Notes: generated from the letters alone by a model not told the origin. DNA of 32,000 nt from Mucisphaera calidilacus (GCF_007748075.1 NZ_CP036280.1:3300001-3332000); one strand, 5' to 3'; shown: positions 16,735 through 32,000, counted from the stretch's first letter. Numbers and translations are program-made.

Positions 16735-16827
16735 GGCGTTCTCGGGCTGGGGTTTCGGCGGACACGCCAATGGTAGAAGATTTGGCACAGGTTGATGAGC
16801 CGGTGGTGATGTGGGACTTTGCCGACT

Positions 16828-18141
16828 ATGGATGCATTTGTCATTGAAGGCGGCCGACCCCTCCGCGGATCGGTCCGGGTCAACGGTTCCAAGAACGCCT
16901 CGCTGCCCCTCATGGCCGCGGCACTCCTCACCGACGAACCCGTCACCCTCCACGACGTGCCCCGGCTCTCGGACATCGGGAACATGGTCCGACTGCTCGA
17001 GGCTCTCGGCTGCACGGTCGAACGACCCGAAAACGCAGGCCGACTCAGCCTCCACGTCACCGACGACACACGCGTCGAGGCCCACTACGACATCGTCCGA
17101 ACCATGCGCGCCGGGATCTGCGTCCTCGGACCCCTCCTCGCCCGACGCGGACGGGCACGCGTCTCCATGCCAGGCGGATGCGCTATCGGCGACCGACCCG
17201 TCGACCTCCACCTCCGCGGGCTCAGGGCGCTCGGCGCCGAAATCCACCTCGAAGGCGGCTACATCGTCGCCACCTCCCCCGCCAACGGGACCGAACGCCT
17301 CCGCGGACGGAGCGTCTTCCTCGGCGGGCCCAACGGCTCCACCGTCCTCGGCACCGCCAACGTCATGTCCGCCGCGGCCCTCGCCGAGGGTGTCACCGTC
17401 ATCGAGTCCGCAGCATGCGAGCCCGAGGTCGAAGACCTCGCCGGCATGCTCAACGGCATGGGCGCGAAGATCACCGGCGCCGGCACGCCACGCATCACCA
17501 TCGAGGGCGTCGAGCGGCTCAGCAGCGTCGATCACACCGTCATGCCCGACCGCATCGAGGCCGGAACCTACGTCATCGCCTCCGCCATCACCAACGGCGA
17601 CATCGAGCTTGAGAACTACCCCGGCCAGACGCTCCTCGCCCTGCACGACCGACTCGAACAGGTCGGCGTCGAGGTCACCCCCGACGAAGCAGGCGACGGC
17701 TGGCGGCAGAGGGTCCGCATCAGCACCCGCCGACGACTCGAGCCGGTCCACGTCGTCACCCAGCCCCACCCCGGATTCCCGACCGACCTCCAGGCTCAGC
17801 TGATGGCCCTGCTCTGCCTCGCCGACGGCAACTCGATGGTGACCGAGAAGATCTTCCCCGACCGATTCCTCCACGTCGCAGAACTCCTCCGCATGGGCGC
17901 GAACCTGACCCGAACCGGGCCGAGTGTTCTCGTCTCCGGCGTCGGCGAACTCGTCGGCGCGCCGGTGATGGCGTCCGACCTCCGCGCCTCAGCCGGTCTG
18001 GTGCTTGCCGGCCTGGCGGCACGCGGGACGACCATCATCCGGCGGGTCTACCACCTCGACCGCGGCTACGAACGCATGGAACGGACACTCCAGGAACTCG
18101 GCGCGACCATCGAACGCGTCGATCAGGAAACCCTCGCGTGA
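16828..18141 (+). CDS. murA: UDP-N-acetylglucosamine 1-carboxyvinyltransferase
   Basis: MDAFVIEGGRPLRGSVRVNGSKNASLPLMAAALLTDEPVTLHDVPRLSDI is collinear with the MurA N-terminus. Also contains CAIGDRPVDLHL (active-site Cys loop) and a C-terminal HLDRGYERMERTL. ATG 16828 is preferred over the track TTG at 16819. Confidence 0.9.
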   Translation: MDAFVIEGGRPLRGSVRVNGSKNASLPLMAAALLTDEPVTLHDVPRLSDIGNMVRLLEALGCTVERPENAGRLSLHVTDDTRVEAHYDIVRTMRAGICVLGPLLARRGRARVSMPGGCAIGDRPVDLHLRGLRALGAEIHLEGGYIVATSPANGTERLRGRSVFLGGPNGSTVLGTANVMSAAALAEGVTVIESAACEPEVEDLAGMLNGMGAKITGAGTPRITIEGVERLSSVDHTVMPDRIEAGTYVIASAITNGDIELENYPGQTLLALHDRLEQVGVEVTPDEAGDGWRQRVRISTRRRLEPVHVVTQPHPGFPTDLQAQLMALLCLADGNSMVTEKIFPDRFLHVAELLRMGANLTRTGPSVLVSGVGELVGAPVMASDLRASAGLVLAGLAARGTTIIRRVYHLDRGYERMERTLQELGATIERVDQETLA

Positions 18142-18311
18142 GCGACGACAGCCTGGACAACTGGGTCGCGGTGCTCCGATGCCCCGTCACCGGCGAGAGG
18201 CTCCGACGCGAGGGCGAGGCTCTGGTCAGTGAGCAATCCGGCCTGCGCTACCCCATCGAGGACGGCCTCCCAATGCTGCTGTCCGAGCACGCCGTCATCA
18301 ATCCAGAGTGA
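18138..18311 (+). CDS. Trm112/YcaR-like small protein (UPF0434 family)
   Basis: Not in the ORF track (57 aa, below its apparent 60-aa floor). Own translation from GTG 18138: VSDDSLDNWVAVLRCPVTGERLRREGEALVSEQSGLRYPIEDGLPMLLSEHAVINPE*. The L.CP....L ... YPI.DG.P.LL pattern is typical of Trm112-like proteins. The GTG overlaps the murA TGA (GTGA). Confidence 0.6.
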   Translation: MSDDSLDNWVAVLRCPVTGERLRREGEALVSEQSGLRYPIEDGLPMLLSEHAVINPE

Positions 18312-18347
18312 ACTATGTTTTTGTCCTGAATGGGTTAAGATCGGTGT

Positions 18348-19217
18348 ATGCCCTCCGAGACCCCATCACTGGACCGAGCTCACAGCAGCCACCCCCGGCA
18401 CTGGCGGCAGTTCCGCGTCGTCTATCCCGTCATGAGCCGCCGCTCGGGCGGGCTGTCGGTCGGCATCAACCTCAGCCCCGACGGCCTGTGCAACTTCGAC
18501 TGCACCTACTGCCAGGTCGATCGCTCGAAGCTCGCCGAGAACGCCCCGGTTGACCTTGACGAACTGCACGGCGAGCTGTCGGTGATGCTCGGCCTGATCC
18601 GCTCGGGCGATTTCTGGACCGACCCTGACTTCGAGGGACTGCCCGAGGACCGGCGGGTGCTCCGCGACCTCTCGTTCTCAGGCAACGGCGAGCCGACCGC
18701 TTCGCCGCTCTTCCCCGCCGCCGTCGATATGGTCCTCGGCCTGCGCGACGCGTCGGGCCTGGACGGCGTGAAAGTCGTCGTGATCACCAACGGGACGCTG
18801 CTGCACCGCGAGCCGGTGAAGAAGGCGATCGGTCGGCTGGGCGACCGCGGCGAGGTATGGGCCAAACTCGACGCGGGGACACAGGCTTACTACGAGAAGA
18901 TTGATCGCTCGGCGGTGCCGCTGGAGCGTTCGGTCGGCAACATGGTGCAGGCGTCGCAGGTCCATCCCCTGACGATCCAGACGATGCTGCTGCGGGACTC
19001 GAGCGGGCCGATGCCCGACACGGAGTTCATGGCCTACATCGCGCGGCTGCGGACGATACTGGACCGGGGCGGCGTGATCACGGGCGTGCAGCTCTACACG
19101 GTCGCGCGTGAGCCCCAGGAATCGGATGTTGAGCCGTTGACGGAGGAAGAGCTGGAGCAGCGTGCGGCCCAGTTGCGCGACGCATTGCCCGAGCTGGATG
19201 TTCGGATTTACCCGTGA
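18348..19217 (+). CDS. Radical SAM domain protein (subfamily not assignable by eye)
   Basis: GINLSPDGLCNFDCTYCQV contains the CX3CX2C cluster motif. LSFSGNGEPT is the GGE-like SAM-binding motif, followed by VVVITNGTLL and VWAKLDAG strands typical of the partial TIM barrel. Confidence 0.8.
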   Translation: MPSETPSLDRAHSSHPRHWRQFRVVYPVMSRRSGGLSVGINLSPDGLCNFDCTYCQVDRSKLAENAPVDLDELHGELSVMLGLIRSGDFWTDPDFEGLPEDRRVLRDLSFSGNGEPTASPLFPAAVDMVLGLRDASGLDGVKVVVITNGTLLHREPVKKAIGRLGDRGEVWAKLDAGTQAYYEKIDRSAVPLERSVGNMVQASQVHPLTIQTMLLRDSSGPMPDTEFMAYIARLRTILDRGGVITGVQLYTVAREPQESDVEPLTEEELEQRAAQLRDALPELDVRIYP

Positions 19218-19478
19218 CGGGGGTGGCGATGTCGCGCACAACGTGACAACTTTACAGATTTTTGCGCTTTTTCGGGTTCAGTAAACACTGCTAACCGGCT
19301 GTTAAACGCTGTTAACGGTCGGGAATGGGTCGGTTTTGGCCGAAAACGGGCTGTTTTCGCGCACAATCTGACACGCGCGACCCCTTGAAAGGTCGCCTTT
19401 GTGCGCGCCGGCCCTTCAGGCGGGATTGGGGGTGCAATCGCGTACTGCTTTGTGGTTTTTGTCTGTCGGGTGTAAGGG
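19218..19478. other. AT-richer intergenic spacer with repeated motifs; candidate oriC-associated or regulatory region
   Basis: A 17-mer TCGCGCACAA-NN-TGACA occurs twice (19232-19248, 19357-19373). Its 9-mer core CGCGCACAA occurs a third time inverted (19399-19407). There is a tandem GCTGTTAA(A)CG (19298-19317) plus GCTGTTTTCG (19350-19359), and a hairpin GCGACC-N8-GGTCGC (19377-19396). The spacer lies next to the + strand GC-skew sign change. Confidence 0.35.
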
Positions 19479-20045
19479 TTGGCGGTCGGGCGGTACCCAG
19501 ACATGTGGGAAGGTGACGTGTTGCCTGAGCGTGAAGAACAATCCGTCTTTCTTGAGTGGCTCGATTCGCACAGCGGGTCGGTGCTCAAGGTCGCTCGGGC
19601 CTACACGCTGACACACGAGGAGTGTCAGGACCTGGCGCAGGAGATCCTGATGCAGGCTTGGAGGTCTCTGCCGGGTTTCGAGGGTCGGGCGCGCCCGTCC
19701 ACGTGGTTCTACCGGGTGGCGCTGCAGACAGCGATGAACTGGAAGCGGAATGACCAGAAACGGCGTCGGTGGCAGAAGCCGCTGCTGGAGCTGGAGGCGG
19801 TCGGGCCGGAGGGGTTGAATGGCGAGGTGCGTGCCGAGCATCGGGAGACGGTGGAGCGGCTGTACGCGGCGATTCACCGGCTGCCCAAGGCGGATACGGC
19901 GCTGGTGCTGCTTTATCTGGAGGCTTTGAGCTACCGGGAGATGGCGGAGGTTCTGGGGCTGTCGGAGAGTCACGTGGGCGTGAAGCTGAACCGTGCGAAG
20001 AAGGCGTTGCGTGTGTTGATGGAAGGGGATGGCGATGAAGCCTGA
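19479..20045 (+). CDS. ECF-type RNA polymerase sigma factor (sigma-70 family, group 4)
   Basis: Region 2 (DLAQEILMQAWRSLPGFEGRARPSTWFYRVALQTAMNWKR) and region 4 HTH (LPKADTALVLLYLEALSYREMAEVLGLSESHVGVKLNRAKKAL). The start is uncertain (ATG 19479, ATG 19503 or GTG 19518). Confidence 0.85.
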   Translation: MAVGRYPDMWEGDVLPEREEQSVFLEWLDSHSGSVLKVARAYTLTHEECQDLAQEILMQAWRSLPGFEGRARPSTWFYRVALQTAMNWKRNDQKRRRWQKPLLELEAVGPEGLNGEVRAEHRETVERLYAAIHRLPKADTALVLLYLEALSYREMAEVLGLSESHVGVKLNRAKKALRVLMEGDGDEA

Positions 20046-21165
20046 TCCGTTGCAGGAGGCTTGGGGTGCGCAGGGCGGGGGCGTGCGCGTGACCAAAGAG
20101 GGTGCTCTGCTGCTGCGTGAGGTTCAGCGGAACCAGCGCTATCTCGATCAACTCGTGCGCCTGCGCGACTACCGCGAGGTGGGTGTGGCGCTGATGCTGA
20201 TCGTGGCGTGGTTCGCGATGTCGCTGCTGGTGCCCGAGATGCTGTGGACGTGGTACCTGAGCGTGCCCATGTTCATCTGGATCACGGTCTTCATGCTGGT
20301 GTTCCGTCATCGGTATGGGTTGTTGCGTAGCCGCGCGGATGACGCGCTGGTTGAGCAGGCTCGTGAGAGCCTGCGTCAGGTGGAGGACCAGATCTGGCTG
20401 CTGCGAAACGTGATGTGGTGGTACATCCTGCCGTTGACGGTCCCGGGGGCGATCTGGGCCGTGCACCTGGGCGTGGCGACGTCGGATTCGGGTGTGTGGG
20501 AGTCGGCGGTGCTGACGCTGATGCTGCTGGGGCTGTTTGTCTTCGTGGTTTGGATGACGTATCGCGTGAATCGTGTTGCGGTGCGGGATGAGCTGGAGCC
20601 GCGTCGCGATGAGTTACTTGAGCTGCTGCGTGGACTGGATGTGGAAGCCGATGAGGAGAACGCGATGACGGGTCGCCAGCGTTTCGGTTTTGGCGGGTAT
20701 CTGGGCATGCTGCTGGTGGTTTGTGTGATCTCGGCGGTTGTGCTCCCGACGGGTCTGGCCGCGACGGAGTGGGTTCGGGGTGTGGTGACAACGCCTCCCG
20801 TTGAGGGTGTGGATTTCCCGCGTCTGTCGCCTTTCGAGGCGGTCGACTGGGGTGACGGTGATTCATCGGTGCCGAGGGTCAAGGTCGACGGGGTGTGGTA
20901 TTTCCTGGGATCGATCGACGCGGTGCCCATTGATGATCTGGTTGAGTTCAGCAAGGCGACGTACGGCGAGCGCTGGCAGAAGCGTATTGATGAAGACCTC
21001 GTGGAGGTGATGACGCTGATGGGGCATGCGCCGGGCGAGACGGTGCGGCTGCGGATGGTCACCGTCGAGACCACCGAGTTCGCGTTCCTGAAAGATGTGG
21101 CGATGACCGAGGCGAACCGCAGGGCGGTTCGCGAGGCACGGCGTGGGGGTGAAGTTTCGCCTTGA
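20035..21165 (+). CDS. Multi-pass membrane protein co-transcribed with the ECF sigma factor; putative non-canonical anti-sigma or sensor partner
   Basis: The ATG at 20035 overlaps the sigma-factor stop codon (ATGAAGCCTGA) and GGAAGGGG lies 6 nt upstream. About 5 hydrophobic helices (VALMLIVAWFAMSLLV, WYLSVPMFIWITVFMLVF, WWYILPLTVPGAIWAVHLGV, AVLTLMLLGLFVFVVWMTY, YLGMLLVVCVISAVVLP) precede a ~130-aa soluble C-terminal domain. The functional call rests on gene context only. Confidence 0.5.
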   Translation: MKPDPLQEAWGAQGGGVRVTKEGALLLREVQRNQRYLDQLVRLRDYREVGVALMLIVAWFAMSLLVPEMLWTWYLSVPMFIWITVFMLVFRHRYGLLRSRADDALVEQARESLRQVEDQIWLLRNVMWWYILPLTVPGAIWAVHLGVATSDSGVWESAVLTLMLLGLFVFVVWMTYRVNRVAVRDELEPRRDELLELLRGLDVEADEENAMTGRQRFGFGGYLGMLLVVCVISAVVLPTGLAATEWVRGVVTTPPVEGVDFPRLSPFEAVDWGDGDSSVPRVKVDGVWYFLGSIDAVPIDDLVEFSKATYGERWQKRIDEDLVEVMTLMGHAPGETVRLRMVTVETTEFAFLKDVAMTEANRRAVREARRGGEVSP

Positions 21166-22233
21166 TCAGCCGAGTTGTTTGAAGCCTTGTTCGAGCATCT
21201 CGGCGGTCATGTCCCAGCCGATGCACTCGTCGGTGACGGAGACGCCTCGTTTGAGCTGGGTGAGGTCGCCGGGGATGTCCTGCCGGCCGGGTTCGAGGTT
21301 GGACTCGATCATGACGCCTGTGATGGGGCAGTCGTTCTGCCGGCGTTGCTGGAGGATGGAGTTCCAGACGACCTGCTGCTGCTCGTGCTTCTTGCCTGAG
21401 TTGGCGTGTGAGCAGTCGACCATGATGCCGGCGGGGAGGCCAGCGGCTTTGAGTTTCTGGGAGGCTTCGGCGACGTTCTCGGGGTCGTAGTTAGTTTTGC
21501 CGGAGCCGCCTCGGAGGATGACGTGGCCCCAGCGGTTGCCGGTGGTGGCGACGACGCAGCAGCGTCCGTCCTCGTCGACGCCTAGGAAGTGGTGGGGTGC
21601 CTTGGCGGACTTCATGGCGTCGATGGCGACCTGGAGGTTGCCGTCGGTGGCGTTTTTGTAGCCGACGGGCATGGAGAGGCCGGAGGCCATCTGCCGGTGT
21701 GTCTGCGACTCGGTGGTGCGTGCGCCGATGGCGGCCCAGGAGACCATGTCGTCGAGGTACTGGGGTGTGAAGGGGTCTAGGAACTCGGTGGCGGTGGGGA
21801 GTCCCATGGCGGTGATGTCGAGGAGGAGTTTGCGTGCGATGCGCAGGCCCTCGGACATCTGGAAGCTGCCGTCGAGGAGGGGGTCGTTGATGAGCCCTTT
21901 CCAGCCGACGGTGGTTCGCGGTTTTTCGAAGTAGGTCCGCATGACGATGACCATGCGGTCGGTGTAGGCGGCTCGGCAGGCGAGGAGTCGTTCGGCGTAT
22001 TCGAGGGCGGCGTCGGGGTCGTGGATGGAGCAGGGCCCGATGACGACGAGGAGCCTGGGGTCTTCGCCTGAGAGGATGGCCTTGATGGTGTTGCGTGACT
22101 GGATGACGGTTCGTCGGCTGGCGTCGGAGAGGGGGAGTGCCTGCTCGAGGTCGCGTGGCGCGGTGAGGGGCGTGATGGACTGGACGTGGACGTTCTGGGT
22201 GGGCGTCAGGTCGACGTTCTGGGGGGTGGTCAC
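21166..22233 (-). CDS. aroG: 3-deoxy-7-phosphoheptulonate (DAHP) synthase, class I
   Basis: [51 protein letters not shown] and DCSHANS are class I-alpha DAHP synthase motifs. GTG start at 22233 with GGAG 7 nt upstream. The isozyme type (F/G/H) cannot be determined. Confidence 0.9.
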
Positions 22234-22331
22234 CGCGTGGCTCCGGTCGTGGGGGGCTGGGTCCGATCGGTGGGATCGGACGGACTAGTGTATCGACCGG
22301 ATCGAGGTTCACATGTTGTTAGCGTGCGGGG

Positions 22332-23546
22332 TTATTCGGGTCTTCGGATGACGTATCCGACGCCGCCTCGTCCGATCCATGCCCGTGCGAGTTCGTGGTT
22401 TCGGTAGATGACGCCGTTGCCGCGGTCGCGTGAGGCGGAGTCGTTGACGATGGCGTCGCCCTCGGGGGTGAGCCCGCGGATGGTGATGAGGTGTCCGTCG
22501 GTGGAGCGCATGACGTTGGAGGGGAATTCGTCGCGTCGGAATCGGATGGAGCAGATGATGGGCTGGCCTTGTGCGATATAGGCCTGGACCTGTCTCCAGT
22601 CGCGGACGCGGACGAGTTCGCCTTCGAGTCCGTGGTGTGAGGCATAGGCGACGGCGCGGTGCCAGTTGCCGAAGATCCGGTTTTCGCGGTCGAAGATGGC
22701 GAAGGCGTTGGTGCGTGTGGGCATGTCGACGCCGAAGTAGGCCATGACCATGGAGGTGGAGGTGGGTGAGCAGATGCGTCCGCGGATGGACTGGTGTTCG
22801 ATGCCCTGGGGTCGGAAGGGGACGGGCAGGTCACGGGCCCAGCCGGCGGGTGGTTCGGGGCTTGTCGTGACGAGGTCGGGGTCGACGCCGTCTTCGATCC
22901 GTCCGGAGTAGACGGTGACGAGTTTGCGGAGCGTGGGCTTGTCGTCGGTTTCGAGGGAGAAGGATTCGAGTCGAGCCTGGAGCTGGTAGGTGTCGGCGGG
23001 CTGGTTGAGGACGAGGTAGTCGATCTCGATTTTGCCGCGGGCGAATTGTGTGGTGACGGGTCGGGAGGGGTCGCGGTCGCCCCAGCTGCCGAGGTAGAGC
23101 CATGGCGACCATTCGCCGGTGGCGATGTCGCGGGCTCGGACGAAGAAGGAGGCGGCGGTGTGTTCGGGCGTGTGGAGGTTCCAGGAGGGCAGGATTTCGG
23201 AGACGGGGAACTCGGTGCGGATTTCGGGTGAGGTCCAGGTGCCGACGCGAGGGTAGCGTTGGCTGTTGTTGGGGAGGGTGATCTCGCCGGTGGGGAGGGT
23301 GATGATGCCTGAGGAGGTGCCTTCGGCCCAGTCGGAGGGGTCCTGATAGCGGACGGTGCGGTCGGCGAAGCGGTAGGGGTTATTGAGCCAGCGTTCGCTG
23401 GGGAAGTCCTCGATGCCTGTGTTGGGCTCGGTGGTCTGAGGCGTGGGTTCGGGCTGTTGTTCTTCTGTGCTGGTGAGGATGGCGCAGCCGGTCAGTGAGG
23501 CGAGGGCGAGGGTCAGGAACAGGATCGCTGGGAGGCGATGCTTCAT
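22332..23546 (-). CDS. Lipoprotein with C-terminal peptidase C39-like (papain-fold cysteine peptidase-like) domain
   Basis: MKHRLPAILFLTLALASLTGC is a signal peptide with lipobox LTGC. The C-terminal half has RGRICSPTSTSMVMAYFG (candidate catalytic Cys context) and DGHLITIRG (candidate His), as in Peptidase_C39_2-type domains. The N-terminal ~230 aa are unassigned. Confidence 0.6.
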   Translation of the reverse strand: MKHRLPAILFLTLALASLTGCAILTSTEEQQPEPTPQTTEPNTGIEDFPSERWLNNPYRFADRTVRYQDPSDWAEGTSSGIITLPTGEITLPNNSQRYPRVGTWTSPEIRTEFPVSEILPSWNLHTPEHTAASFFVRARDIATGEWSPWLYLGSWGDRDPSRPVTTQFARGKIEIDYLVLNQPADTYQLQARLESFSLETDDKPTLRKLVTVYSGRIEDGVDPDLVTTSPEPPAGWARDLPVPFRPQGIEHQSIRGRICSPTSTSMVMAYFGVDMPTRTNAFAIFDRENRIFGNWHRAVAYASHHGLEGELVRVRDWRQVQAYIAQGQPIICSIRFRRDEFPSNVMRSTDGHLITIRGLTPEGDAIVNDSASRDRGNGVIYRNHELARAWIGRGGVGYVIRRPE

Positions 23547-23575
23547 GGTTTTCTCCGTGTGTGGTCGGGACGGTT

Positions 23576-24394
23576 TTAGAAGTCCCAGATCTGGTTCCAG
23601 GCGGTCATCCAGTCGTCGGCTTTGCTCTGGACCTTGAGGGGTTCGACGAGTGTGACGCCATGGCGGCCGAGGAACCGTCTTGCGGTGTCGACGGTTGAGA
23701 GTTCGACGGTGATGGTGCAGGGCGATGCGGGCACCCAGGGCTGGACGCGTTGTTTGTCGAGGTTTTCAAGGGCTCGTCGTGCGCCGGCCTGAATGAGGTC
23801 GCGGGCGACCTTGGGGGGTTTGTGTCGAGCGGAGAACCGTGAGAGTCCGGTTTTGACGGCGACGGCTTCGAGCCCTTCGCCGAGGAGTTCGGTTCCCTCG
23901 CGGCAGGTGACGTCGTCGCCGGTGATGAGGGCGACGGGCACGCCGTGGTGTCCGCAGAGGGCGGTGTTGATGCCGAACTCGCCGACGGAGGTGTCGTTGA
24001 AGATGAGGTTGTCCCAGGTGGTGGTGGAGATGGTGTGGCACATGACGCCCAGGGGCGTTCCGGCCTTGGCGTGCATGCCGACCATGAGTGCGGCGTCGCA
24101 GCCTGTTTCGAACATGTGGGTGTAGCGTCCCCAGGGGTGGTGGGCGACGTATTCGCAGCGTGGGTCGAGTCGTTCGGCGAGGAGGGAGTTGAAGGAGCAG
24201 TCGTCGCCGGCGCCGTGGCAGTCGACGACGTGGATCTCGGTGGCGCCGGCCTCGGCGGCTCCGCGGACGGCGGCGTTGATCTCCTCGGTGTAGAGGAGGC
24301 GGCCTTCTTCGTAGCGTTGCCCGTCGCGGTCGACCATATCCCAGGTACAGATCCCTGAGACGCCTTCCATATCGCTCATGATGAGGACGCGCAT
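23576..24394 (-). CDS. Peptidase M55 family, D-aminopeptidase DppA-like
   Basis: MRVLIMSDMEGVSGI is the characteristic M55 N-terminus, with later HVVDCHG and MVGMHA. ATG 24394 (AGGGAAG upstream) is preferred over the track start at 24433. Confidence 0.8.
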   Translation of the reverse strand: MRVLIMSDMEGVSGICTWDMVDRDGQRYEEGRLLYTEEINAAVRGAAEAGATEIHVVDCHGAGDDCSFNSLLAERLDPRCEYVAHHPWGRYTHMFETGCDAALMVGMHAKAGTPLGVMCHTISTTTWDNLIFNDTSVGEFGINTALCGHHGVPVALITGDDVTCREGTELLGEGLEAVAVKTGLSRFSARHKPPKVARDLIQAGARRALENLDKQRVQPWVPASPCTITVELSTVDTARRFLGRHGVTLVEPLKVQSKADDWMTAWNQIWDF

Positions 24395-24690
24395 GTGTTG
24401 TCTTCCCTGTGCCACCGGGTTTGCAGGCTGCAATGGTGAGCATCATACCCTGAGGGCGGTTGGGTGTGGATGGTCTGGCGTGTGTTTGCGACTCGTGTTC
24501 GTGGCGTGTGGTTGTAGCGATCAGGCTGTTTTCGGCTGTTTTTTTCGGACTCTGGGCGGTTAAGTGAAGGGTGTGTGTGGTCGATGCGTATCCATGTGGC
24601 CATGGTCCGGAAACGGATTCGGGCGGGGCCAGGCGTCGGCGGGCGTTGTGTGCGTCAGCCGTGGGACGAGTTCACCGTTAGGGGACAGCG

Positions 24691-25131
24691 ATGTTGCGTG
24701 ACTGGATTGGGTGTCGTTGGTTGGTTGCGACGGCGGGGGTGGGCATGACGTTGACCCTGGGCGGCTGCATGATGGGTGACAAGCTGCATCTCGATCTGGA
24801 GGCGCCGCGTGGTTCGACGGTGACGTACCGGGGCGACACGGACCCGATGCCGGCGTCGCTGGCGGTGCCGCGGCCGGGGAAGGTGGGCGCGAAGGCGTAC
24901 CGCAAGGAGCTTGAGTTCGAGTTCATCCTCGGCGGCGAGCCGATCGAGGCGGAGGGTGTGCTCGAGACGTACGGGTACGAGGAGCACGATGTTGACCGGC
25001 TGTCGAAGAACTTTCTGAAGATTCAGCCGTCGCACATCCGCGACATCGAGCGTGGGTCGGCGATTGTGCTCAACGGCACGTCGGCGAGCGGACAGCACAT
25101 TTACCAGTTGACGGTCGGCCAGAGCCGCTGA
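24691..25131 (+). CDS. Putative lipoprotein, unknown function
   Basis: N-terminus ...VATAGVGMTLTLGGCMMGD has a lipobox-like LGGC. Protein-like composition. Lies 28 nt upstream of the next lipoprotein gene on the same strand. Confidence 0.5.
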   Translation: MLRDWIGCRWLVATAGVGMTLTLGGCMMGDKLHLDLEAPRGSTVTYRGDTDPMPASLAVPRPGKVGAKAYRKELEFEFILGGEPIEAEGVLETYGYEEHDVDRLSKNFLKIQPSHIRDIERGSAIVLNGTSASGQHIYQLTVGQSR

Positions 25132-25159
25132 GGCGGCGTTGATCTGACGGGAGAAAGCG

Positions 25160-26008
25160 ATGAAGCGAGTGATGCTTGGTGCGTGGATGTCGTGTGCGCT
25201 GGGCGTGATGAGCCTGGGCGGCTGCGCGGTGTTCGGGGGTGGTGCTGCCGAGCCGGAGGTCTCGCGGTCGCACCTGCCGGTGATCGGGTTGTCGACGGCG
25301 GCGGTGTTTGTGGAGTATGGCAGCGACTGGACGGACCACCGCTGGCAGAGCGGGATTGATCAGGCGATCTGGAAGCTGGTCCAGCCGGTTGGCCGGGTGG
25401 ATGACGCGGTGGCGGAGCCGGGCGGCACAGCGTTTCGGGCGCGTGCCCGGTCAAAGGATGAGGGTTTTGCTGCCGGGCACAACGCGGGCGTGATTGCCGG
25501 AGCGACCTCGGCGCGGGTGCCCTCGTCGGGTTACGCGTTGGCGGATCGCTCGTCGACAATGAGTTATGCCGATACAACGCGGAGCCGTGTGTCGGGCGAG
25601 GTGATCGGTCACGTGACGACGTCGTATGCGGCGCGTCAGCGGACGGGCACGCGTGTTTATGCTCAGTACAGCGAGTCGAGTGCGGTGTCTTCGGGTCGCG
25701 AGCAGCGATCGGTTCGTCCGGTGCTGGAGGTGTCGGTCGAGGCGTTGCCCGAGTACGTGATCCCGGGTGATCTGGCTGAGCTCGAGGTGACGGTGCGCAA
25801 TCTCTCGGAGGTTCTGGCGACGGGTGCCGCGTTGCACCTGCAGCTGCCGGCGGGTGCGCGGGTGCGTGACATCGACGGCGCGAAGCTGGTCAACGAGGAT
25901 GCCGAGGGCGTGTTGTTGTCGGTGGGCAAGGTGAAGCCGGAGGCGGCGCTGCGTGTGGCTTTGAGCGTGGAGGTCGGCTTGCCGATTTCGGTGGCGATGG
26001 CGGATTGA
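25160..26008 (+). CDS. Putative lipoprotein with C-terminal DUF11/CARDB-like beta-sandwich segment
   Basis: MKRVMLGAWMSCALGVMSLGGCAVFGG has lipobox LGGC, with GGGAGAAAG upstream. The C-terminal LEVSVEALPEYVIPGDLAELEVTVRNLSEVLATGAALHLQLPAGARV resembles DUF11-type repeat domains (by eye). Confidence 0.55.
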   Translation: MKRVMLGAWMSCALGVMSLGGCAVFGGGAAEPEVSRSHLPVIGLSTAAVFVEYGSDWTDHRWQSGIDQAIWKLVQPVGRVDDAVAEPGGTAFRARARSKDEGFAAGHNAGVIAGATSARVPSSGYALADRSSTMSYADTTRSRVSGEVIGHVTTSYAARQRTGTRVYAQYSESSAVSSGREQRSVRPVLEVSVEALPEYVIPGDLAELEVTVRNLSEVLATGAALHLQLPAGARVRDIDGAKLVNEDAEGVLLSVGKVKPEAALRVALSVEVGLPISVAMAD

Positions 26009-26950
26009 TCAGTCGGCGGTCATGACGCGCAGGGTTTGAGCTTCGACGGTTTCGTCGCGGTCGACGTTGAGGACGGCGCCGTTGGGTGCCTTGATGCTGA
26101 GGCTGTAGGCCTGCTGCTGGGCGGTGTGTCGTGCCGTGACCTCGTTGCGGTCGAGGTCGATGAAGATCTCGGAGTTGTAGCTGGTCTTGCCGGGTTTGAA
26201 GGTGGGTTTGGGGGCGTTGGGCGGGATGTTGCCGTAGTCGGGTGGCAGGAGGACGGGACTGGCTTCGGCGGAGATGACGGCGACGGGAACGTCCTCGATG
26301 GTGGTGACGTCGCTGAGCGTGTAGGTGACGGGGATCTCGATCTGGTTGTCTTCGAAGGCGTAGCCGAGGAGATCCTGTTTCCAGGTGCTGTTGATCTTGA
26401 GGGATTCTGGGAGCTCGCCGGGCTGGGTCATGCCGGCGATGTTGTAGAGGGCTTCTTTTTCGGCGCGTTCGGCCCCGACCATATCGACGCGGAGTTTGAG
26501 CTTGTCGGTGCCGGCGACCTTGGCGATGGTGCCGTCGGGCTTGATGGTGTAGACGAGGGGGTTGTCGACGACTTCCTTGAGGAGTTTGTGGAACTCGGCG
26601 TGTTCGCCGGGGCCTTTGCGTGTGTCGACCTTGAGGGTCTGGCTCTGTCCGTTGGCGCTGTTGGTGAGGCTGACCTCGAGCCACTTGACGGCAATCTCGC
26701 AGGTCGCTTCGCCTGAGGGCTTGACCTTGTCGACGGTCCAGGCGATCTCGGCGTTGAGTTCGGCGGTTTCGGACTGTTTGGACTCGCGGCCGTTGGGGAA
26801 CCTGACGTGGGTGTTGGTGGTGTAGCGGGTCCACTCTTCGTAGAGGCGTGTCTGTCCCTCGGCGAACTTGGGTCGCAGGTCGACGGCGTCCTGCGCGGCG
26901 GCGGGGGCGATGGCGAGGAGGCAGAGGATTGTGGCGAGGAGGTATTTCAT
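26009..26950 (-). CDS. Secreted protein, unknown function
   Basis: MKYLLATILCLLAIAPAAAQDA is a cleavable signal peptide. The 313-aa product has balanced, beta-rich composition and I recognise no motif. It lies 27 nt downstream of the 26978..27562 gene on the same strand. Confidence 0.55.
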   Translation of the reverse strand: MKYLLATILCLLAIAPAAAQDAVDLRPKFAEGQTRLYEEWTRYTTNTHVRFPNGRESKQSETAELNAEIAWTVDKVKPSGEATCEIAVKWLEVSLTNSANGQSQTLKVDTRKGPGEHAEFHKLLKEVVDNPLVYTIKPDGTIAKVAGTDKLKLRVDMVGAERAEKEALYNIAGMTQPGELPESLKINSTWKQDLLGYAFEDNQIEIPVTYTLSDVTTIEDVPVAVISAEASPVLLPPDYGNIPPNAPKPTFKPGKTSYNSEIFIDLDRNEVTARHTAQQQAYSLSIKAPNGAVLNVDRDETVEAQTLRVMTAD

Positions 26951-26977
26951 GCGTGGATGGTATCCGAGTGGGGTGAT

Positions 26978-27562
26978 TCAGATGGAGCCGGGGCCGGGCG
27001 TGCCGTCGGCGGAGCCGGTCCAGTGCATCTCGATGGCTTTCCAGCCGTCGGGTGTTCTGTGCCAGTGGATGTCCCAGTAGGTTCGTGCGGGTGTCGGCAT
27101 GGTTTCGACGTAGGTGCGGATTTCGGCCTGGGTGGTGGCGGTGTCGGGTGAGGGGAAGGTGGTGGTCTGGGACCAGACGCGGTGGCGGCGGATGCCATAC
27201 TTGTCGGTGATGGACTGCGCCCAGTCGTCGAGTTCGGGTCGCTGGTAGATCACAGTCGGGCCCGGGGCGAGGATCGTGAGGTTGTCGTCGGCGGCGTGGT
27301 TGAATTCGGGGTTGTCGGTATCGGTGGCGAGTTGGAGGAGTTGGTCGAGTCGTGCGTTGACGTGTTCGTGGTCGGTGGTGATGGCGAAGGAGAGGATGAG
27401 CGCGATGAAGGCGATGTCGAGGCAGCCCATGGCGAGGATGATGCCGGCGCGGGTCCGCTGGAGGGCGCGTGCGATCAGGAAGGCGATGGCGGCGAGGGCG
27501 ACGGAGGCGACGACGACCGGCCAGGGTTCTTCGAGGAAGAGGACGCGTAGGGTGTCGATCAT
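26978..27562 (-). CDS. Membrane-anchored protein with NTF2/SnoaL-like C-terminal domain (tentative)
   Basis: Two N-terminal hydrophobic helices (WPVVVASVALAAIAFLIA, GIILAMGCLDIAFIALILSFAI). The C-terminal TYWDIHWHRTPDGWKAIEMHW resembles the terminal strands of NTF2-like folds. GAGAGGAA lies upstream of ATG 27562. Confidence 0.5.
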   Translation of the reverse strand: MIDTLRVLFLEEPWPVVVASVALAAIAFLIARALQRTRAGIILAMGCLDIAFIALILSFAITTDHEHVNARLDQLLQLATDTDNPEFNHAADDNLTILAPGPTVIYQRPELDDWAQSITDKYGIRRHRVWSQTTTFPSPDTATTQAEIRTYVETMPTPARTYWDIHWHRTPDGWKAIEMHWTGSADGTPGPGSI

Positions 27563-27663
27563 GGGTGGTTCCTCTCTGCCTGAACAGGGTACCTGTGGGG
27601 CGGGTGCGGGGTTCGTGGAAGTTGGCGACGGGCGGGGGTTTGGTCCGATATCCCGGTTACGCC

Positions 27664-29577
27664 ATGGCTGAATCGGACACGATCTTCAAGCGGAATCTGT
27701 CTGCGCTGAGACTGCGCAACAGCACCTTTGCGGACCGCCTTGAGACTACAGAACCCGTTGAATTGAATTGGGTTACGTCGAAGAAGGGCCCGTTGTCGGC
27801 ACAGCTGGGGGATGGGTCGGGATCGGCGAGTTGGCTGGCGAGTCGATTCGATCCCGGAGCCGAAGCGAAGCGGCTGGTGGAGAAGGTGGATCGGGACAAG
27901 GCGGGGTGTGTGGTGGTGATGGGTTTCGGTCTGGGGCATCACGTCTCGTCGCTGGTTGAGCAGCTGGGTCCGCGGACGGTGCTGGTGGTTTTCGAGCCGG
28001 ACGTGGGGTTGCTGCGTGCGGTGTTTGAGCGTGTGGATCACTCGGCGACGCTGGCGAACGGGATGGTCTTCATCTTTGACCGTGAGGATGACCGGGCGGG
28101 GCTGACGAGTCGTCTGGAGCGGTTGGGGGGCGTGATGACGCAGGGGACGCAGATCGTGGTGCACCCGGCGTCGCGGTCGCGTCACAAGGACGCGTTCGGG
28201 GCGTTCTCGAAGACGTTTGCGGAGGCGTTGGCCTATTTCCGAACGACGGTGGCGACGGCGCTGGTGAACTCGGCGCGGACGTGCCGGAACCTGGTGAACA
28301 ATCTGGGGCACTACGTGGCGGGTGCGACGGTGGCGGAGTTGCAGGGTGTGGCGAAGGGCTATGCGGCGGTGTGTGTGGCGGCGGGGCCGAGCCTGGTTCG
28401 GAACGTGGACCTGCTGCGTGACCCGGCGGTGCGTTCGAAGCTGGTGATCGTGACGGCTCAGACGGCGTTGCGGCCGTTGCTGGACCGGGGGATCCGTCCT
28501 GACTTCGTGACGGCGTTGGACTATTCGCCGATCTGCACGCGTTTTTATGAGGATCTGCCGGATCTGCCGGACGTGACACTGGTGGTTGAGCCGAAGGCGC
28601 ACCCGCGGATTCTTGAGGTCTATCCGGGTCCGGTGCGTGTGCTCAGCTCGGACTTCAACGACGTGCTCATTGGTGATCTGAAGCGTGAGATCCCGCCGAT
28701 CCGTTCGGGGACGACGGTGGCGCACCTGTCGTTCTACCTGGCGCAGTACCTGGGGTGTGACCCGATTCTGCTGCTGGGGCAGGACCTCGGTTTTTCGGAC
28801 GGCCTGTACTACGCGCCGGGCACGGCGGTGCACAAGGTGTGGTCGTCGGAGCTGTCGCAGTTCAATTCGGTTGAGATGATGGAGTGGCAGCGGATTGTTC
28901 GGATGCGTGGGCATCTCACGCGGACCGAGGACATCCACGGCCGTCCGATGTTCACGGACGAGCAGATGGTGACGTACCTGCGTCAGTTCGAGCGTGATTT
29001 CGCGGATGCCGAGCAGCGTGTGATCGACACGACGGAGGGCGGCCAGGCCAAGGCGAACACGGAGCGGATGGCGCTCGCGGAGGCGGTGGGTCAGATCGAG
29101 ACGGGTGCGGTGCCGGAGCTGCCCCGGGCGTCGCGTGAGCTGGACCCGGAGCGGTTGTCGAAGGTTCGGGGGTTGTTGGAGCAGCGGCTCCGCGACCTGA
29201 CCGAGTTGCGGAAGGTGTCGCACAACACGATCGCGTTGCTGGAGCAGATGCAGGGCTGTCTGGACAATCAGCCGAGGCTGCTGAAGATTTTCGAGAAGCT
29301 TCAGAAGAACGACCGGCGGGTGCACGGCCCGCTTTACGAGACTTTCAGCGCGGTGAACGCGATGAACACGATCGGCGTGTTTCATCGCCAGGCTGCGGAC
29401 CGGCGGATCAGCCAGATCACGGATGATCGTCAGGCGCGGCAGGCGGGTCAGCTCAAGCGTGACGTTGAGAACATCGAGTGGATGCTGCAGGCGTGCGACG
29501 AGGCGGAGTCGATTTTTTCCGAAGCGTTGGAGCGCGTGACGTGTCTGCGTCCGGCGTTGCCGGCGGCAGCGGCGTAG
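27664..29577 (+). CDS. Motility-associated-factor (Maf) family glycosyltransferase, DUF115 / MptE-like domain
   Basis: Preferred ATG is 27664 (MAESDTIFKRNLSALRLRNSTFADRLE, the typical Maf N-terminus). Also GFGLGHHV, LVVFEPD, and the DUF115 core VCVAAGPSL...VIVTAQTALRPLLDRGIRPDFVTALDYSP...GTTVAHLSFYLAQYLGCDPILLLGQDLGF. The upstream 65 codons of the track ORF are Arg-rich junk that overlaps the divergent gene. Confidence 0.8.
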   Translation: MAESDTIFKRNLSALRLRNSTFADRLETTEPVELNWVTSKKGPLSAQLGDGSGSASWLASRFDPGAEAKRLVEKVDRDKAGCVVVMGFGLGHHVSSLVEQLGPRTVLVVFEPDVGLLRAVFERVDHSATLANGMVFIFDREDDRAGLTSRLERLGGVMTQGTQIVVHPASRSRHKDAFGAFSKTFAEALAYFRTTVATALVNSARTCRNLVNNLGHYVAGATVAELQGVAKGYAAVCVAAGPSLVRNVDLLRDPAVRSKLVIVTAQTALRPLLDRGIRPDFVTALDYSPICTRFYEDLPDLPDVTLVVEPKAHPRILEVYPGPVRVLSSDFNDVLIGDLKREIPPIRSGTTVAHLSFYLAQYLGCDPILLLGQDLGFSDGLYYAPGTAVHKVWSSELSQFNSVEMMEWQRIVRMRGHLTRTEDIHGRPMFTDEQMVTYLRQFERDFADAEQRVIDTTEGGQAKANTERMALAEAVGQIETGAVPELPRASRELDPERLSKVRGLLEQRLRDLTELRKVSHNTIALLEQMQGCLDNQPRLLKIFEKLQKNDRRVHGPLYETFSAVNAMNTIGVFHRQAADRRISQITDDRQARQAGQLKRDVENIEWMLQACDEAESIFSEALERVTCLRPALPAAAA

Positions 29578-29587
29578 GAGCGGGCTG

Positions 29588-31258
29588 GTGACACGAGTGT
29601 TCGCTTTGATCCCGACGGATCTGGAGGAGGGGCGGCTGGGTCATGGTCGGTCGCTCGGGGATGACCTTGGCGGGGTATCGGTGCTGGAGCAGACGGTGCG
29701 TCGCGCGCTGCGGACCGAGGGTGTTGAGGGCGTGGTGCTGGTTCATCCCGAGGGTCAGGAGCCGTTGGGGGTGTTGTCGGGCGAGGCGGCGGGGCGTGTG
29801 ACGACGTTTGCAGACGCGGACGGGCTGCGTGACGATCAGACGGCGCGGCTGGTTTCGGCGCGGAAGTGGGCGTTGGGTGCGTGGCGGGGAGGTTTGGGTT
29901 TTGCGACGGCGTTCGACGAGTTGCTGCCACCCGGGGCGTTGCTGCGTGCGGCGGAGTCGGTGGGTGCCGACTCGGCGTTGCTGGTGCGTGGCGACTGGCC
30001 GTTGTTTGATGTGGGTTATGCCGAGGCGTTGATCCGGTCGCACGTGGCGAGCCCGGAGCACCTGAAGGTGACGCTGACGCAGGCGCCACCCGGTCTGGGG
30101 CCGCTGGTGCTGTCGCGTCGCGTGCTGGGTGACATGGCGGAGCACGCGGGCTGGTTCGGCAAGATCCTGGGTTACAACACGTTTGCGCCGTCGATCGACC
30201 CGATCGGTCGCGAGGTGACACACCCGATCGCGTCGTCGGTTCGCGACTGTGCGCGGCGGTTTGTTTATGACACGCCCGAGTCGATCGGGCGTCTTCGTGG
30301 CGTGGCGGAGCGACTGGGAGGCGGCCTGGCGACGGCCGATGCACAGGCGGTGACGGACGCCTGCCGAGCGCTTGAGTCGGGTGACGGCGGTTTCTGGTTC
30401 TCGCGTTTGCCGCAGCAGGTGACGGTTGAGTTGACGCCTCGGCGTCCGGTGTCGGGCCCGATCACGCCTCAGGCGTATGTGGATTTTGATCGTCCGGACA
30501 TGGACGTTGATCTGGCCGAGCGTGTGGTGGGCGAATTGGGTGCGGCGGAACGCGGTGACGTGGCGTTGATGCTGGGGGGTCTGGGTGATGCGCTGCTTCA
30601 TCCGGAATGGGAGCGTGTGGTGCGTGCGGCGGACGAGGCGGGTGTGTTCGGGATCGGCGTGGAGACGGATCTGGCGGGTTCGTGGGAGGAGGTCGCGCCG
30701 CTGCTGGATCTGCCGATTGACCTGGTGGTGGTGCGTTTCAACGCGGATTGTTCGGAGACGTACGAGAGGGTGATGGGTGGTGATTTCACGCGGGTGGCGA
30801 CGAATCTCAAGCGGCTGTTCGAGGAGCGTGGGGCGCGTCGTGCGGCGGACGGTCGGGGGTCGCAGGTGCCGTGGATCGTGCCGCGTCTGGTGAAGACGGC
30901 GGAGACGCTCCGCGACATGGAGAGTTTCTTCGAGCGCTGGTTGCGTGCGTCGGGTTACGCGATTCTGTCGCCTTCGTGTTCGGGTTGCGGCCTGATGCCC
31001 GAGTTGTCGCCCGTGCCGATGGAGCCGCCACGGCGTGTGGCCTGTCAGCAGCTGGGTCGTCGGATGTCGGTGTTGTCGGACGGGCGTGTGGCGTTGTGTG
31101 ATCAGGACTGGCTGGGGCGGGCTTCGCTGGGCGATGCTCGTGCGGATTCGCTGGCGTCGATCTGGGCGCGATGCGCGGAGCCTTTTGCGGCGCACGCGTC
31201 GGGTCGTTACCAGGAGCTGACGATCTGCGGTTCGTGTCGGGAGTGGCACCGGCCATGA
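29588..31258 (+). CDS. Fusion protein: degenerate cytidylyltransferase-like N-domain plus radical-SAM-like barrel lacking the CX3CX2C triad plus SPASM/twitch-like Cys-rich C-terminus
   Basis: GTG start 11 nt after the maf stop. The N-terminus VFALIPTDLEEGRLGHGRSLGDDLGGVSVLEQTV...VEGVVLV parallels the neighbouring CMP-sugar synthetase (VLALILARAGSKGLPGKNELDVAGRPMLAWTV...VERVVLT), but the RxGSKGxxxKN motif is replaced. Residues 277-340 (QVTVELTPRRPVSGPITPQ...LMLGGLGDALLHPEW) look like a radical SAM beta1/GGE region without cysteines. C486-x12-G-x4-C504 matches the first SPASM element, and there are also CSGC (464-467) and CGSC (547-550). Confidence 0.65.
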   Translation: MTRVFALIPTDLEEGRLGHGRSLGDDLGGVSVLEQTVRRALRTEGVEGVVLVHPEGQEPLGVLSGEAAGRVTTFADADGLRDDQTARLVSARKWALGAWRGGLGFATAFDELLPPGALLRAAESVGADSALLVRGDWPLFDVGYAEALIRSHVASPEHLKVTLTQAPPGLGPLVLSRRVLGDMAEHAGWFGKILGYNTFAPSIDPIGREVTHPIASSVRDCARRFVYDTPESIGRLRGVAERLGGGLATADAQAVTDACRALESGDGGFWFSRLPQQVTVELTPRRPVSGPITPQAYVDFDRPDMDVDLAERVVGELGAAERGDVALMLGGLGDALLHPEWERVVRAADEAGVFGIGVETDLAGSWEEVAPLLDLPIDLVVVRFNADCSETYERVMGGDFTRVATNLKRLFEERGARRAADGRGSQVPWIVPRLVKTAETLRDMESFFERWLRASGYAILSPSCSGCGLMPELSPVPMEPPRRVACQQLGRRMSVLSDGRVALCDQDWLGRASLGDARADSLASIWARCAEPFAAHASGRYQELTICGSCREWHRP

Positions 31259-31980
31259 GCGTGAAGGGTGATACGAGCGGCGGTGTGCTGGCGTTGATCC
31301 TGGCGCGTGCGGGGAGCAAGGGTCTGCCGGGCAAGAACGAGCTGGATGTCGCGGGTCGGCCGATGCTGGCGTGGACGGTGGACTGTGCGCGCGAGGCGGC
31401 CTGTGTGGAGCGCGTGGTGTTGACGACGGATGGCGAGCGGCTGGCCGAGATGGGTCGTTCGCTGGGCGTGGAGGTGGTGGAGCGGCCCGGGGCTCTGGCG
31501 GATGACACGGCGACCGTGGACGCGGCGGCGCGGCACGCGGTGACGGTGTTGGAGGCGGGCGGGGCGTCTTATTCGGAGGTGGTGTTGTTGTACGGCAACG
31601 TGCCGGTCCGGCCGAGCGGTCTGGTGGATCGTGCGGTGTCGATGCTGCGCGAGACGGGCTGCGATTCGGTGCAGTCGGTGTGCGGCGTGGGCAAGGCACA
31701 CCCGTACTGGATGAAGACCCTGGATGAGACGGGGCGTATGTCGGCGTACGAGGCGAATCAGGTCTACCGGCGTCAGGACCTGCCTCCGGTTTACCTGCTG
31801 GATGGTGGGTTGATCGCGGTGCGTCGTGCTTCGCTGTTTGTGGAGTGTGCGGGTGAGCCGCACGCGTTTCTCGGCGAGGATCGTCGTGCGGTGGTGACGG
31901 AGCCGGGTGAGGTGATTGATATTGATACCGCGGCGGATCTTGCGGTTGCGGAGGCGGTGTTGCTTTCAAGGGGCGACTGA
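31255..31980 (+). CDS. CMP-nonulosonic acid synthetase (N-acylneuraminate cytidylyltransferase family; NeuA/LegF/PseF-like)
   Basis: LALILARAGSKGLPGKNELDVAGRPMLAWTV contains the RxGSKGxPxKN motif of the CTP_transf_3 family, and later RRQDLPPVYLLDGGLIAVR. The ATG at 31255 overlaps the upstream stop (ATGA). The track start at 31171 is less likely. The sugar specificity cannot be determined. Confidence 0.85.
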   Translation: MSVKGDTSGGVLALILARAGSKGLPGKNELDVAGRPMLAWTVDCAREAACVERVVLTTDGERLAEMGRSLGVEVVERPGALADDTATVDAAARHAVTVLEAGGASYSEVVLLYGNVPVRPSGLVDRAVSMLRETGCDSVQSVCGVGKAHPYWMKTLDETGRMSAYEANQVYRRQDLPPVYLLDGGLIAVRRASLFVECAGEPHAFLGEDRRAVVTEPGEVIDIDTAADLAVAEAVLLSRGD

Positions 31981-32000
31981 TGGCGGGTCAGGAACCGAGA

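Follow-up and report, generated by a model that had tools for sequence, protein, structure and literature searches.

The stretch of Mucisphaera calidilacus DNA analysed here, 32,000 nucleotides of one strand (GCF_007748075.1 NZ_CP036280.1:3300001-3332000; referred to below as the window), carries at 27664-32000 four genes on the same strand that adjoin or overlap one another. They encode a Maf-type glycosyltransferase (hereafter Maf), a three-domain protein (hereafter the partner), a cytidine monophosphate (CMP)-nonulosonate synthetase and a fourth product that is cut by the window edge. We propose that this is an operon for flagellin O-glycosylation with a nonulosonate, in which the three-domain protein acts as an obligate, non-radical partner of Maf, and we give this whole statement a probability of about 0.6. 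Its parts carry different weights. We are highly confident that the genes form a nonulosonate protein-glycosylation module, flagellin is the likely acceptor, and the odds that the three-domain protein is a non-radical subunit of Maf are about even. Conserved adjacency, short gene overlaps and gene fusions suggest joint action of Maf and the three-domain protein.

Gene layout and supply of the activated sugar

A sequence-only reading of the window had described a translationally coupled Maf module in a planctomycete-like genome, and the positions and overlaps of all four open reading frames (ORFs) are as it had placed them (Table 1). The tight coupling is directly visible in the sequence. Maf and the three-domain gene are separated by 10 nt (29578-29587), with the GTG start 11 nt past the last base of the Maf stop codon, and an AGGAG at 29576-29580 overlaps that stop codon and lies 7 nt upstream of the GTG. 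The three-domain gene and the synthetase gene overlap in ATGA (31255-31258), and the synthetase gene and the fourth gene in TGATG (31978-31982). Codon-position GC favours the frames of all three complete genes. The operon promoters presumably lie in the divergent intergenic region upstream of Maf; the scan for promoters and terminators gave nothing above background, and the consensus scan found no sigma-70-like site in this region. The Rfam and tRNA scans of the 32-kb window were empty.

Table 1. Window positions of the Maf operon and of the genes that diverge from it.
Feature	Positions	Strand	Details
Maf-type (DUF115/MptE-like) nonulosonic-acid protein glycosyltransferase	27664..29577	+	637 aa, ATG start, TAG stop, no signal peptide
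Three-domain Maf partner	29588..31258	+	556 aa, GTG start
CMP-nonulosonate synthetase (NeuA/LegF/PseF-type cytidylyltransferase)	31255..31980	+	241 aa
Fourth gene, 7 codons (MAGQEPR) up to the window edge	31980..32000	+	predicted from synteny to be a hydrolysing UDP-GlcNAc 2-epimerase, NeuC/LegG type
Divergent intergenic region separating the Maf operon from a gene pair of opposite orientation	27563..27663	.	101 bp, read from sequence
194-aa neighbour; two hydrophobic helices near the N-terminus, weak SnoaL/DUF4440-like domain	26978..27562	-	weak Pfam matches
313-aa secreted DUF6263 protein	26009..26950	-	signal peptide MKYLLATILCLLAIAPAAAQ; PF19777 28.8 bits

Maf enzymes are the main bacterial route by which sialic-acid-like sugars are placed onto flagellin. 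The product of the first gene matches PF01973 (DUF115/MptE-like) over residues 209-379 at 117.9 bits (Pfam hidden Markov model (HMM), cut-off 34.6), a score far above the threshold that places the protein where the sequence-only reading had put it. The domain PF20157 (Maf_flag10_N) is matched at 27.2 bits (cut-off 23.5), over profile positions 109-156 of 228 only. To our knowledge, the only solved Maf structure is that of M. magneticum (5mu5), to which the window protein aligns by phmmer with 22 bits (E 5.6e-4); in this alignment, D286 and D374 take the places of the catalytic E324 and D415, and S348 that of the conserved Ser of 5mu5. These three residues of the M. magneticum enzyme are essential by mutagenesis (bioRxiv 10.1101/2020.06.03.131540). 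Against NCBIfam NF050051 (PseD), the window protein scored 66 bits, below the cut-off of 670. Judged by these profiles, it is a member of the Maf family and not a PseD or Campylobacter-type orthologue.

The window Maf can be compared with the known flagellin glycosyltransferases of this family, from M. magneticum, Campylobacter, Aeromonas, Shewanella (Maf-1/Maf-2), G. kaustophilus and C. botulinum. It shares with them the MptE-like/DUF115 domain, part of the Maf N-domain, the catalytic acidic pair with the conserved Ser, and linkage to a CMP-nonulosonate synthetase gene, here in the same operon; in relatives, NeuC and, at some loci, NeuB come after it. It differs from them in its low scores against PseD and 5mu5, in not lying beside a flagellin gene, and in being paired with, or in relatives fused to, a three-domain protein of ~550 aa.

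The identity of the CMP-sugar synthetase held up as well. The protein matches PF02348 (CTP_transf_3) at 66.8 bits, carries the Arg/Lys P-loop LARAGSKGLPGKN, and aligns end-to-end with its best solved relatives, the Neisseria CMP-Neu5Ac (N-acetylneuraminic acid) synthetase 1eyr (E 8e-23) and the Vibrio enzyme 6ifd (E 1.3e-22). It thus shares fold family, P-loop and full-length alignment with the NeuA/LegF/PseF enzymes. It differs in staying below the PseF cut-off (TIGR03584, 104.2 bits against 205.7) and in being fused to NeuB in some relatives, and the sequence does not assign it a substrate.

The fourth gene is represented in the window by its first codons, and its assignment as a NeuC/LegG-type epimerase is drawn from synteny. 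The same position is occupied by Epimerase_2 in the syntenic loci L001 and L003/L004, and the epimerases of L001 and L004 score 299.6 and 308.1 against the NeuC_NnaA equivalog TIGR03568 (cut-off 235.9). The sequence-only reading had expected the sugar biosynthesis genes to continue beyond the window. This holds for one more gene, of NeuC type, in the two closest relatives, but unrelated genes follow it there. There is no neuB gene in the window, and since the operon ends after NeuC in these relatives, the synthase (neuB/legI) must lie elsewhere in the genome.

In other relatives, the synthetase is fused to NeuB. ORF clustering found the fusion in 7 loci (L020, L023, L024, L066, L073, L075 and L077), and counting the NeuB motif on the operon strand raised the number to 9 (adding L031 and L046). 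The NeuA::NeuB fusion is ~584 aa long with a SAF domain, lies at ~11.7-13.8 kb in each locus, and is followed downstream by NeuC. The L075 fusion, the sole member scanned, matched PF03102 at 213.6 bits together with SAF, and scored 295 bits against NeuB_NnaB versus 209 against PseI. NeuC, NeuB and NeuA together make up a complete route from UDP-GlcNAc to CMP-Neu5Ac, and we know of no Pse pathway that uses an Epimerase_2 enzyme. From the NeuC equivalog scores and the synthetase::NeuB fusions in relatives, we infer that the sugar is more likely of the Neu or Leg type than of the Pse type.

The steps up to transfer would follow the established Neu/Leg pathway and what is known of Maf enzymes. The NeuC-type product of the gene at the window edge would convert a UDP-sugar into a 2-acetamido hexose, and a NeuB-type synthase encoded elsewhere would join this with phosphoenolpyruvate to give the nonulosonate. 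The synthetase would then activate the nonulosonate to CMP-nonulosonate, and Maf would place the sugar onto Ser/Thr of unfolded flagellin in the cytoplasm, prior to export. In G. kaustophilus, too, a donor pathway of the NeuA/B/C type serves a Maf; this Maf sialylates flagellin, using Neu5Ac (bioRxiv 10.1101/2020.06.03.131540).

The three-domain protein, a proposed partner of Maf

The second product had been described from sequence as an unusual three-part fusion, and an AlphaFold2 model searched with Foldseek resolves it into three folds: a cytidylyltransferase-like domain (~aa 1-265), a radical-SAM-like barrel (~270-465; SAM, S-adenosylmethionine) and a Twitch/SPASM Fe-S domain (~466-556). 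The model, built with 72 homologues, reached a predicted local distance difference test score (pLDDT) of 91.8 and a predicted template modelling score of 0.91. Against the PDB, the best match of the N-domain was the Leptospira cytidylyltransferase 6oew (target template modelling score (TM) 0.76), followed by KdsB, IspD and NeuA, while the C-terminal part matched BtrN (target TM 0.73), DesII, SuiB, BlsE and SkfB. The radical SAM barrel fold was found with a Foldseek probability of 1.0 to DesII, SuiB, BtrN, BlsE, SkfB and MoaA. Pfam detected only the C-terminal SPASM domain (PF13186, 32 bits, cut-off 21.5), and there was no match to PF04055 (radical SAM) at E <=0.01. The profile comparison of the N-domain with the neighbouring synthetase was marginal (E 0.0035, probability 9%); the fold assignment of this domain therefore rests on structure and not on sequence. 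The N-domain lacks the Arg/Lys P-loop of CMP-sugar synthetases.

Where the CxxxCxxC motif of radical SAM enzymes is expected, the partner has ELTPRRPVSG; the residues at the motif site, ELTPRRPVSGPITPQ, do not fit CxxxCxxC. The motif is missing in all 72 aligned homologues and in 148 of the 150 listed family representatives. Because this cluster motif is missing, SAM cleavage by the partner is not expected. The only conserved Cys residues are C486, C504, C547 and C550, kept in 94-100% of close homologues, and their spacing of 18/43/3 aligns with the Twitch domain of BtrN in the HMM alignment. The protein ends directly after the CxxC, so that it can hold at most one auxiliary [4Fe-4S] cluster and no second SPASM cluster; the four Cys are putative ligands of that one cluster. 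A GGE-like motif is retained as GGLGDALLHP. The partner thus resembles BtrN, DesII and BlsE in its partial TIM barrel, C-terminal Fe-S fold, near-identical four-Cys spacing and GGE-like motif, but differs from them in lacking CxxxCxxC, in its extra N-terminal cytidylyltransferase-like domain, and in having fused relatives without any Fe-S ligands.

Among curated families, TIGR04321 ('spiro-SPASM protein') matched best; its cut-off is 250 bits, and the partner scored 107.7. The match is near full-length, joining partner residues 124-554 with model positions 86-506 of 510, and some Planctomycetota homologues are labelled spiro-SPASM by the Joint Genome Institute. By this score, the partner appears to be a distant relative of TIGR04321 that falls below the family cut-off. 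Unlike the family, which is named for spirochaetes, the window host is a planctomycete; the TIGR04321-related matches listed were all from Planctomycetota, with no spirochaete member among them. No relevant paper on TIGR04321 or spiro-SPASM was found in open-access papers and preprints.

Gene order was compared by a scan of species-representative genomes, which returned 80 related loci; the counts below were taken over 81 non-duplicate loci. All 80 genome loci belong to Phycisphaerae/Planctomycetota, in agreement with the planctomycete-like genome read from the sequence, and the closest are those of a Phycisphaeraceae metagenome-assembled genome (MAG) and a Mucisphaera sp. In these two loci, Maf, the three-domain gene, CTP_transf_3 and Epimerase_2 are followed by unrelated genes. 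The three-domain gene is immediately preceded by Maf in 79/81 loci and has a cytidylyltransferase downstream in 72/81; Epimerase_2 is present in 61/81, on the same strand and downstream in 60. With about 80 independent loci sharing this gene order, the arrangement goes far beyond what chance would give. In the remote stand-alone members (L084, L086, L089 and L090), Maf is again immediately upstream, with a 4-nt overlap. L086 also has, at 12539-13843, a BNR/sialidase-like protein (PF15892, PF13088) between the Maf/three-domain pair and CTP_transf_3.

A profile search of 1.84 billion representatives yielded 10,710 relatives of the partner at E <=0.001, of which 642 fell below 1e-30; the fusions and motifs were counted in the best 150 of the 10,710, taken as 50%-identity representatives. 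Among these 150, 25 are fusions that join Maf to the three-domain protein, at least 1100 aa long (about 1200) and with the three-domain region at the C-terminus. Pfam placed MptE-like at the N-terminus of the 6 full-length fusions and 1 partial fusion scanned, and the source names of the fusions include DUF115, MptE-like and 'motility associated factor glycosyltransferase family protein'. In the fusion P0166 (1209 aa), BLASTP aligned residues 7-625 with the window Maf at 46% identity and residues 657-1187 with the window partner at 32%. Several fusion clusters have 5-6 full-length members from different assemblies, and the fusions are therefore not assembly artefacts. One fusion, P0156, retains the four Cys and resembles the stand-alone Phycisphaeraceae type, whereas the other fusions are grouped by different local motifs. 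This suggests more than one fusion event, the second resting on the single MAG sequence P0156, which could have arisen by a single read-through of the short intergenic gap.

The fused and stand-alone forms differ in their cofactor sites. The Twitch Cys are kept in 82-87% of the stand-alone members but in 4% of the fusions. By comparison, the N-domain residues R92, W99, R100, G101, D110, E111, G169, D204, R224 and D228, and likewise E281, G331, G333, T360 and Y392 of the barrel, are kept at 92-100% in both. Since the fusions have lost the Twitch Cys and retained the rest, the function shared by both forms cannot depend on Fe-S chemistry; judged from this conservation pattern, it most likely resides in the nucleotide-sugar-type N-domain and the barrel. 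At the other end stand the two of the 150 listed members that have the canonical CxxxCxxC, P0200 and P0233, with 199-209 bits against TIGR04321; members of this type are probably active radical SAM enzymes. Taken together, the motifs outline a graded series of losses, with the intact radical SAM enzyme at one end, forms without the radical cluster (window partner) in the middle, and forms that lack the auxiliary cluster as well (fusions) at the other.

Two other explanations of the partner have to be weighed against a non-radical Maf subunit. According to the first, it works as a tailoring enzyme on the sugar or the CMP-sugar, by redox or isomerisation chemistry at the Twitch [4Fe-4S] cluster or by nucleotidyl transfer in the N-domain, and Maf transfers the modified nonulosonate. 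In structure, the barrel and Twitch domains are indeed closest to BtrN, DesII and BlsE, which are sugar-modifying radical SAM enzymes; the Cys spacing and HMM alignment fit the BtrN Twitch domain, and members with an intact CxxxCxxC exist, one of them in a flagellin glycosylation island. Such tailoring is also known to occur, as the T. denticola flagellin has an unusually acylated nonulosonate (PMC13439194). Yet the SAM-cleaving cluster is missing from the window protein and from almost every Planctomycetota member, the fused forms have given up the Twitch Cys while keeping the rest of the protein, and the N-domain is without the P-loop of the synthetases. Recurrent fusion to a transferase is, moreover, seen more typically with subunits than with enzymes acting earlier in a pathway, and we regard tailoring as unlikely.

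Several observations weigh against the subunit reading and are shared with the tailoring view. Two loci from Phycisphaeraceae MAGs, L050 and L051, link the three-domain gene to a cytidylyltransferase without Maf, and with this arrangement a sugar-nucleotide role fits at least as well as that of a Maf adaptor. Stand-alone members retain the complete four-Cys site, and these members may yet have a redox or catalytic role. In L050 (164-2059) and L051 (7972-9894), the place of Maf is taken by a 640-aa FlgI-like and HEAT protein (PF02119, 70.7 bits); the domain of FlgI, the flagellar P-ring protein, is a further flagellar hint.

According to the second explanation, the adjacency is local synteny inherited within one family, and the partner is a decayed radical SAM relic with no role in glycosylation. 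The lost radical SAM motif and the origin of all genome loci from one phylum would be accounted for in this way. However, homologues of the partner are numerous and full-length, at 44-70% identity, and those with an organism name are all from Phycisphaerae/Planctomycetota; between loci, the protein shows 40-70% identity and 42 invariant residues, and the structural model is confident. The pairing with Maf persists while the other flanking genes change, it reaches the remote members, and fusions occur in 25 separate 50%-identity clusters, several of them multi-member and from different assemblies. A relic is strongly disfavoured and hardly credible on this evidence.

As a subunit, the three-domain protein would bind Maf and would present or select the CMP-sugar donor, or help to engage the acceptor. 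It would descend from a cytidylyltransferase-radical SAM-Twitch enzyme whose SAM-cleaving cluster was lost, and its role might be compared with that of GlfM for Maf-2 or of the TPR domain for Maf-1. Maf-2 requires the cis-encoded factor GlfM (Unay, Kint and Viollier, bioRxiv 10.1101/2023.12.03.569772). The likeness to GlfM-Maf-2 and to the Maf-1 TPR lies in a Maf that is served by a cis-encoded or fused accessory module, with separate and fused forms side by side. Unlike GlfM, a small predicted four-helix bundle, the window partner has three domains and shows no sequence relation to it. No GlfM-like small four-helix-bundle gene flanks Maf in the window, and the GlfM paper (bioRxiv 10.1101/2023.12.03.569772) mentions neither radical SAM nor SPASM.

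Maf-based flagellin glycosylation and the use of Neu5Ac by a Maf are already known. The papers found do not describe a Maf clade that is strictly paired, and repeatedly fused, with a protein of cytidylyltransferase-like, pseudo-radical-SAM and Twitch domains, nor the function that this would imply for the orphan spiro-SPASM-like family. A search for flagellin glycosylation, radical SAM and Maf together found no paper among open-access papers and preprints. The partner is a different kind of Maf accessory protein, co-inherited in about 80 relatives and sometimes fused, and with its graded loss of cofactor sites its family would be a clear case of an enzyme becoming a pseudoenzyme subunit. The three-domain gene is also a candidate for co-expression when such Mafs are to be reconstituted in glyco-engineering. 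More tentatively, and with somewhat less than even odds, the pair may represent a third architecture of Maf systems, in which a pseudo-radical-SAM, cytidylyltransferase-like protein is the obligate donor- or acceptor-presenting subunit, has been fused at least twice, and is shared with the spirochaete 'spiro-SPASM' family. If true, this would give an orphan family its first function and could explain Mafs that are not reconstitutable alone.

Flagellin and other candidate acceptors

The direct flagellar evidence comes from one relative. L084, a 53-kb metagenome contig that encodes P0200, and its second copy L085 carry two flagellin genes, FlaG, FliD, FliS, a 202-aa protein (DUF8042/TP0873_N) and Maf in this order. 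These are followed by the three-domain protein with intact CxxxCxxC, CTP_transf_3, NeuB and Epimerase_2, and then by a methyltransferase, an acetyltransferase, a dehydratase, a DegT aminotransferase and a nitroreductase. By gene content, this is a textbook case of an island for flagellin glycosylation, with a pathway of legionaminic type, and its core order is that of the window. The L084 proteins are 32% (Maf), 32% (partner) and 47% (synthetase) identical to those of the window. The nearest named relatives of the L084 flagellin are from Fontivita, Tepidisphaeraceae and Phycisphaerae (50-53% identity), which places the L084 organism in the class of the window organism.

Carriers of the module can be flagellated. 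One of the loci, L034, is the four-gene module of the cultured Poriferisphaera sp. WC338, which has a single polar flagellum and upregulated motility genes (PMC13526803); P. heterotrophicis is also flagellated (PMC10945688). From this and the L084 linkage, we infer flagellin as the likely acceptor, and on this basis the locus predicts sialylated or legionaminylated flagella in Phycisphaerae.

A number of results weigh against flagellin. The scan found no flagellar gene anywhere in the 32-kb window, as the sequence-only reading had already stated, and L084/L085 is the sole lineage with direct adjacency to flagellin. A flagellin motif within 10 kb of the module was found in 0/81 close loci, nor was one found in the window. 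In two other Phycisphaerae, the surroundings of the flagellin cluster contain no Maf, and the search for flagellin homologues gave no contig shared with a module-bearing complete genome. In addition, the genes divergent from the operon encode a secreted DUF6263 protein and a membrane protein (Table 1), and this pair could be the real acceptor or partner.

The alternative is accordingly that the Maf module glycosylates a non-flagellar envelope protein: the DUF6263 protein, its membrane partner or another surface protein. The genes on the other side of the operon had been described as uncharacterised envelope proteins; they prove to be conserved next to the module, in 40-49 of the 81 loci. By tblastn, the DUF6263 gene is present in 49/81 Maf loci, adjacent and divergent in 40, whereas the other window neighbours recur in just 1-2 loci. 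The ORF cluster of the 194-aa membrane protein (c5) adjoins Maf in 40 loci, with a weak DUF4440 match in L001. The lack of flagellar genes near the module, in the window and in the Phycisphaeraceae loci, fits this view too. On the other side, the Maf acceptors reported in the papers found are all flagellins, the core module of L084 lies inside a flagellin-FlaG-FliD-FliS cluster, the carriers can be flagellated, and gene proximity alone points to DUF6263. An envelope acceptor is thus rather improbable, and flagellin remains the preferred acceptor. The single-sequence AlphaFold2 model of the DUF6263 protein was unusable (pLDDT 35.6). Pse/Leg transferases of T. forsythia were considered as Maf-like enzymes that would set a precedent for a glycan acceptor; the paper gave no support for this.

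A helical protein of ~200 aa is encoded directly upstream of Maf in L084 (7340-7948), L085 (4371-4979) and L086 (7413-8045). It is DUF8042/TP0873_N in precomputed Pfam, an assignment not reproduced by a separate Pfam scan; in L084/L085 it stands downstream of FliS, and it has no counterpart in the window. BLAST found no similarity between this protein of L084 or L086 and the 194-aa neighbour of the window. It may be a GlfM-like element in L084 and L086. The one pointer to a spirochaete link is the Pfam family, named after TP0873 of T. pallidum, that is matched upstream of Maf in L084, and we note this as a lead; open-access papers and preprints contained no relevant paper on TP0873 or DUF8042.

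Other features of the window

The remaining genes of the window encode BamA, pyruvate dehydrogenase E1/E2, EPSP and DAHP synthases, an extracytoplasmic function (ECF) sigma factor and peptidases. The GC skew of the + strand changes from -0.05 to -0.2 (1-18500) to +0.2 to +0.35 (19300-32000), independent of gene orientation, with the change of sign at ~18600-19300. In the Mucisphaera locus L004 (1-21000), the operon lies in a skew of -0.15 to -0.35 on the coding strand. By these values, the replication-strand skew of the lineage is unusually strong. The window may contain an origin of replication, or the breakpoint of an inversion, in the interval from the radical-SAM ORF (18348-19217) to the ECF sigma gene (19479-20045); there is no dnaA in the 32 kb.

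The ECF sigma-70 gene, in which regions 2 and 4 are recognised, shares 17 nt with an ORF of 378 aa (20029-21165); this ORF has no Pfam match, and its product is plausibly the anti-sigma factor of that sigma. The ORFs 24691-25131 and 25160-26008 on the + strand had no family match; they have lipobox-like N-termini (LTLGGC and SLGGC) and are common only to the closest relative, L001. The small radical-SAM-like ORF at 18348-19217 reaches 26 bits against PF04055, short of the cut-off of 29.5, and is unrelated to the Maf module; a radical SAM gene is also found at the edge of the syntenic locus L001.

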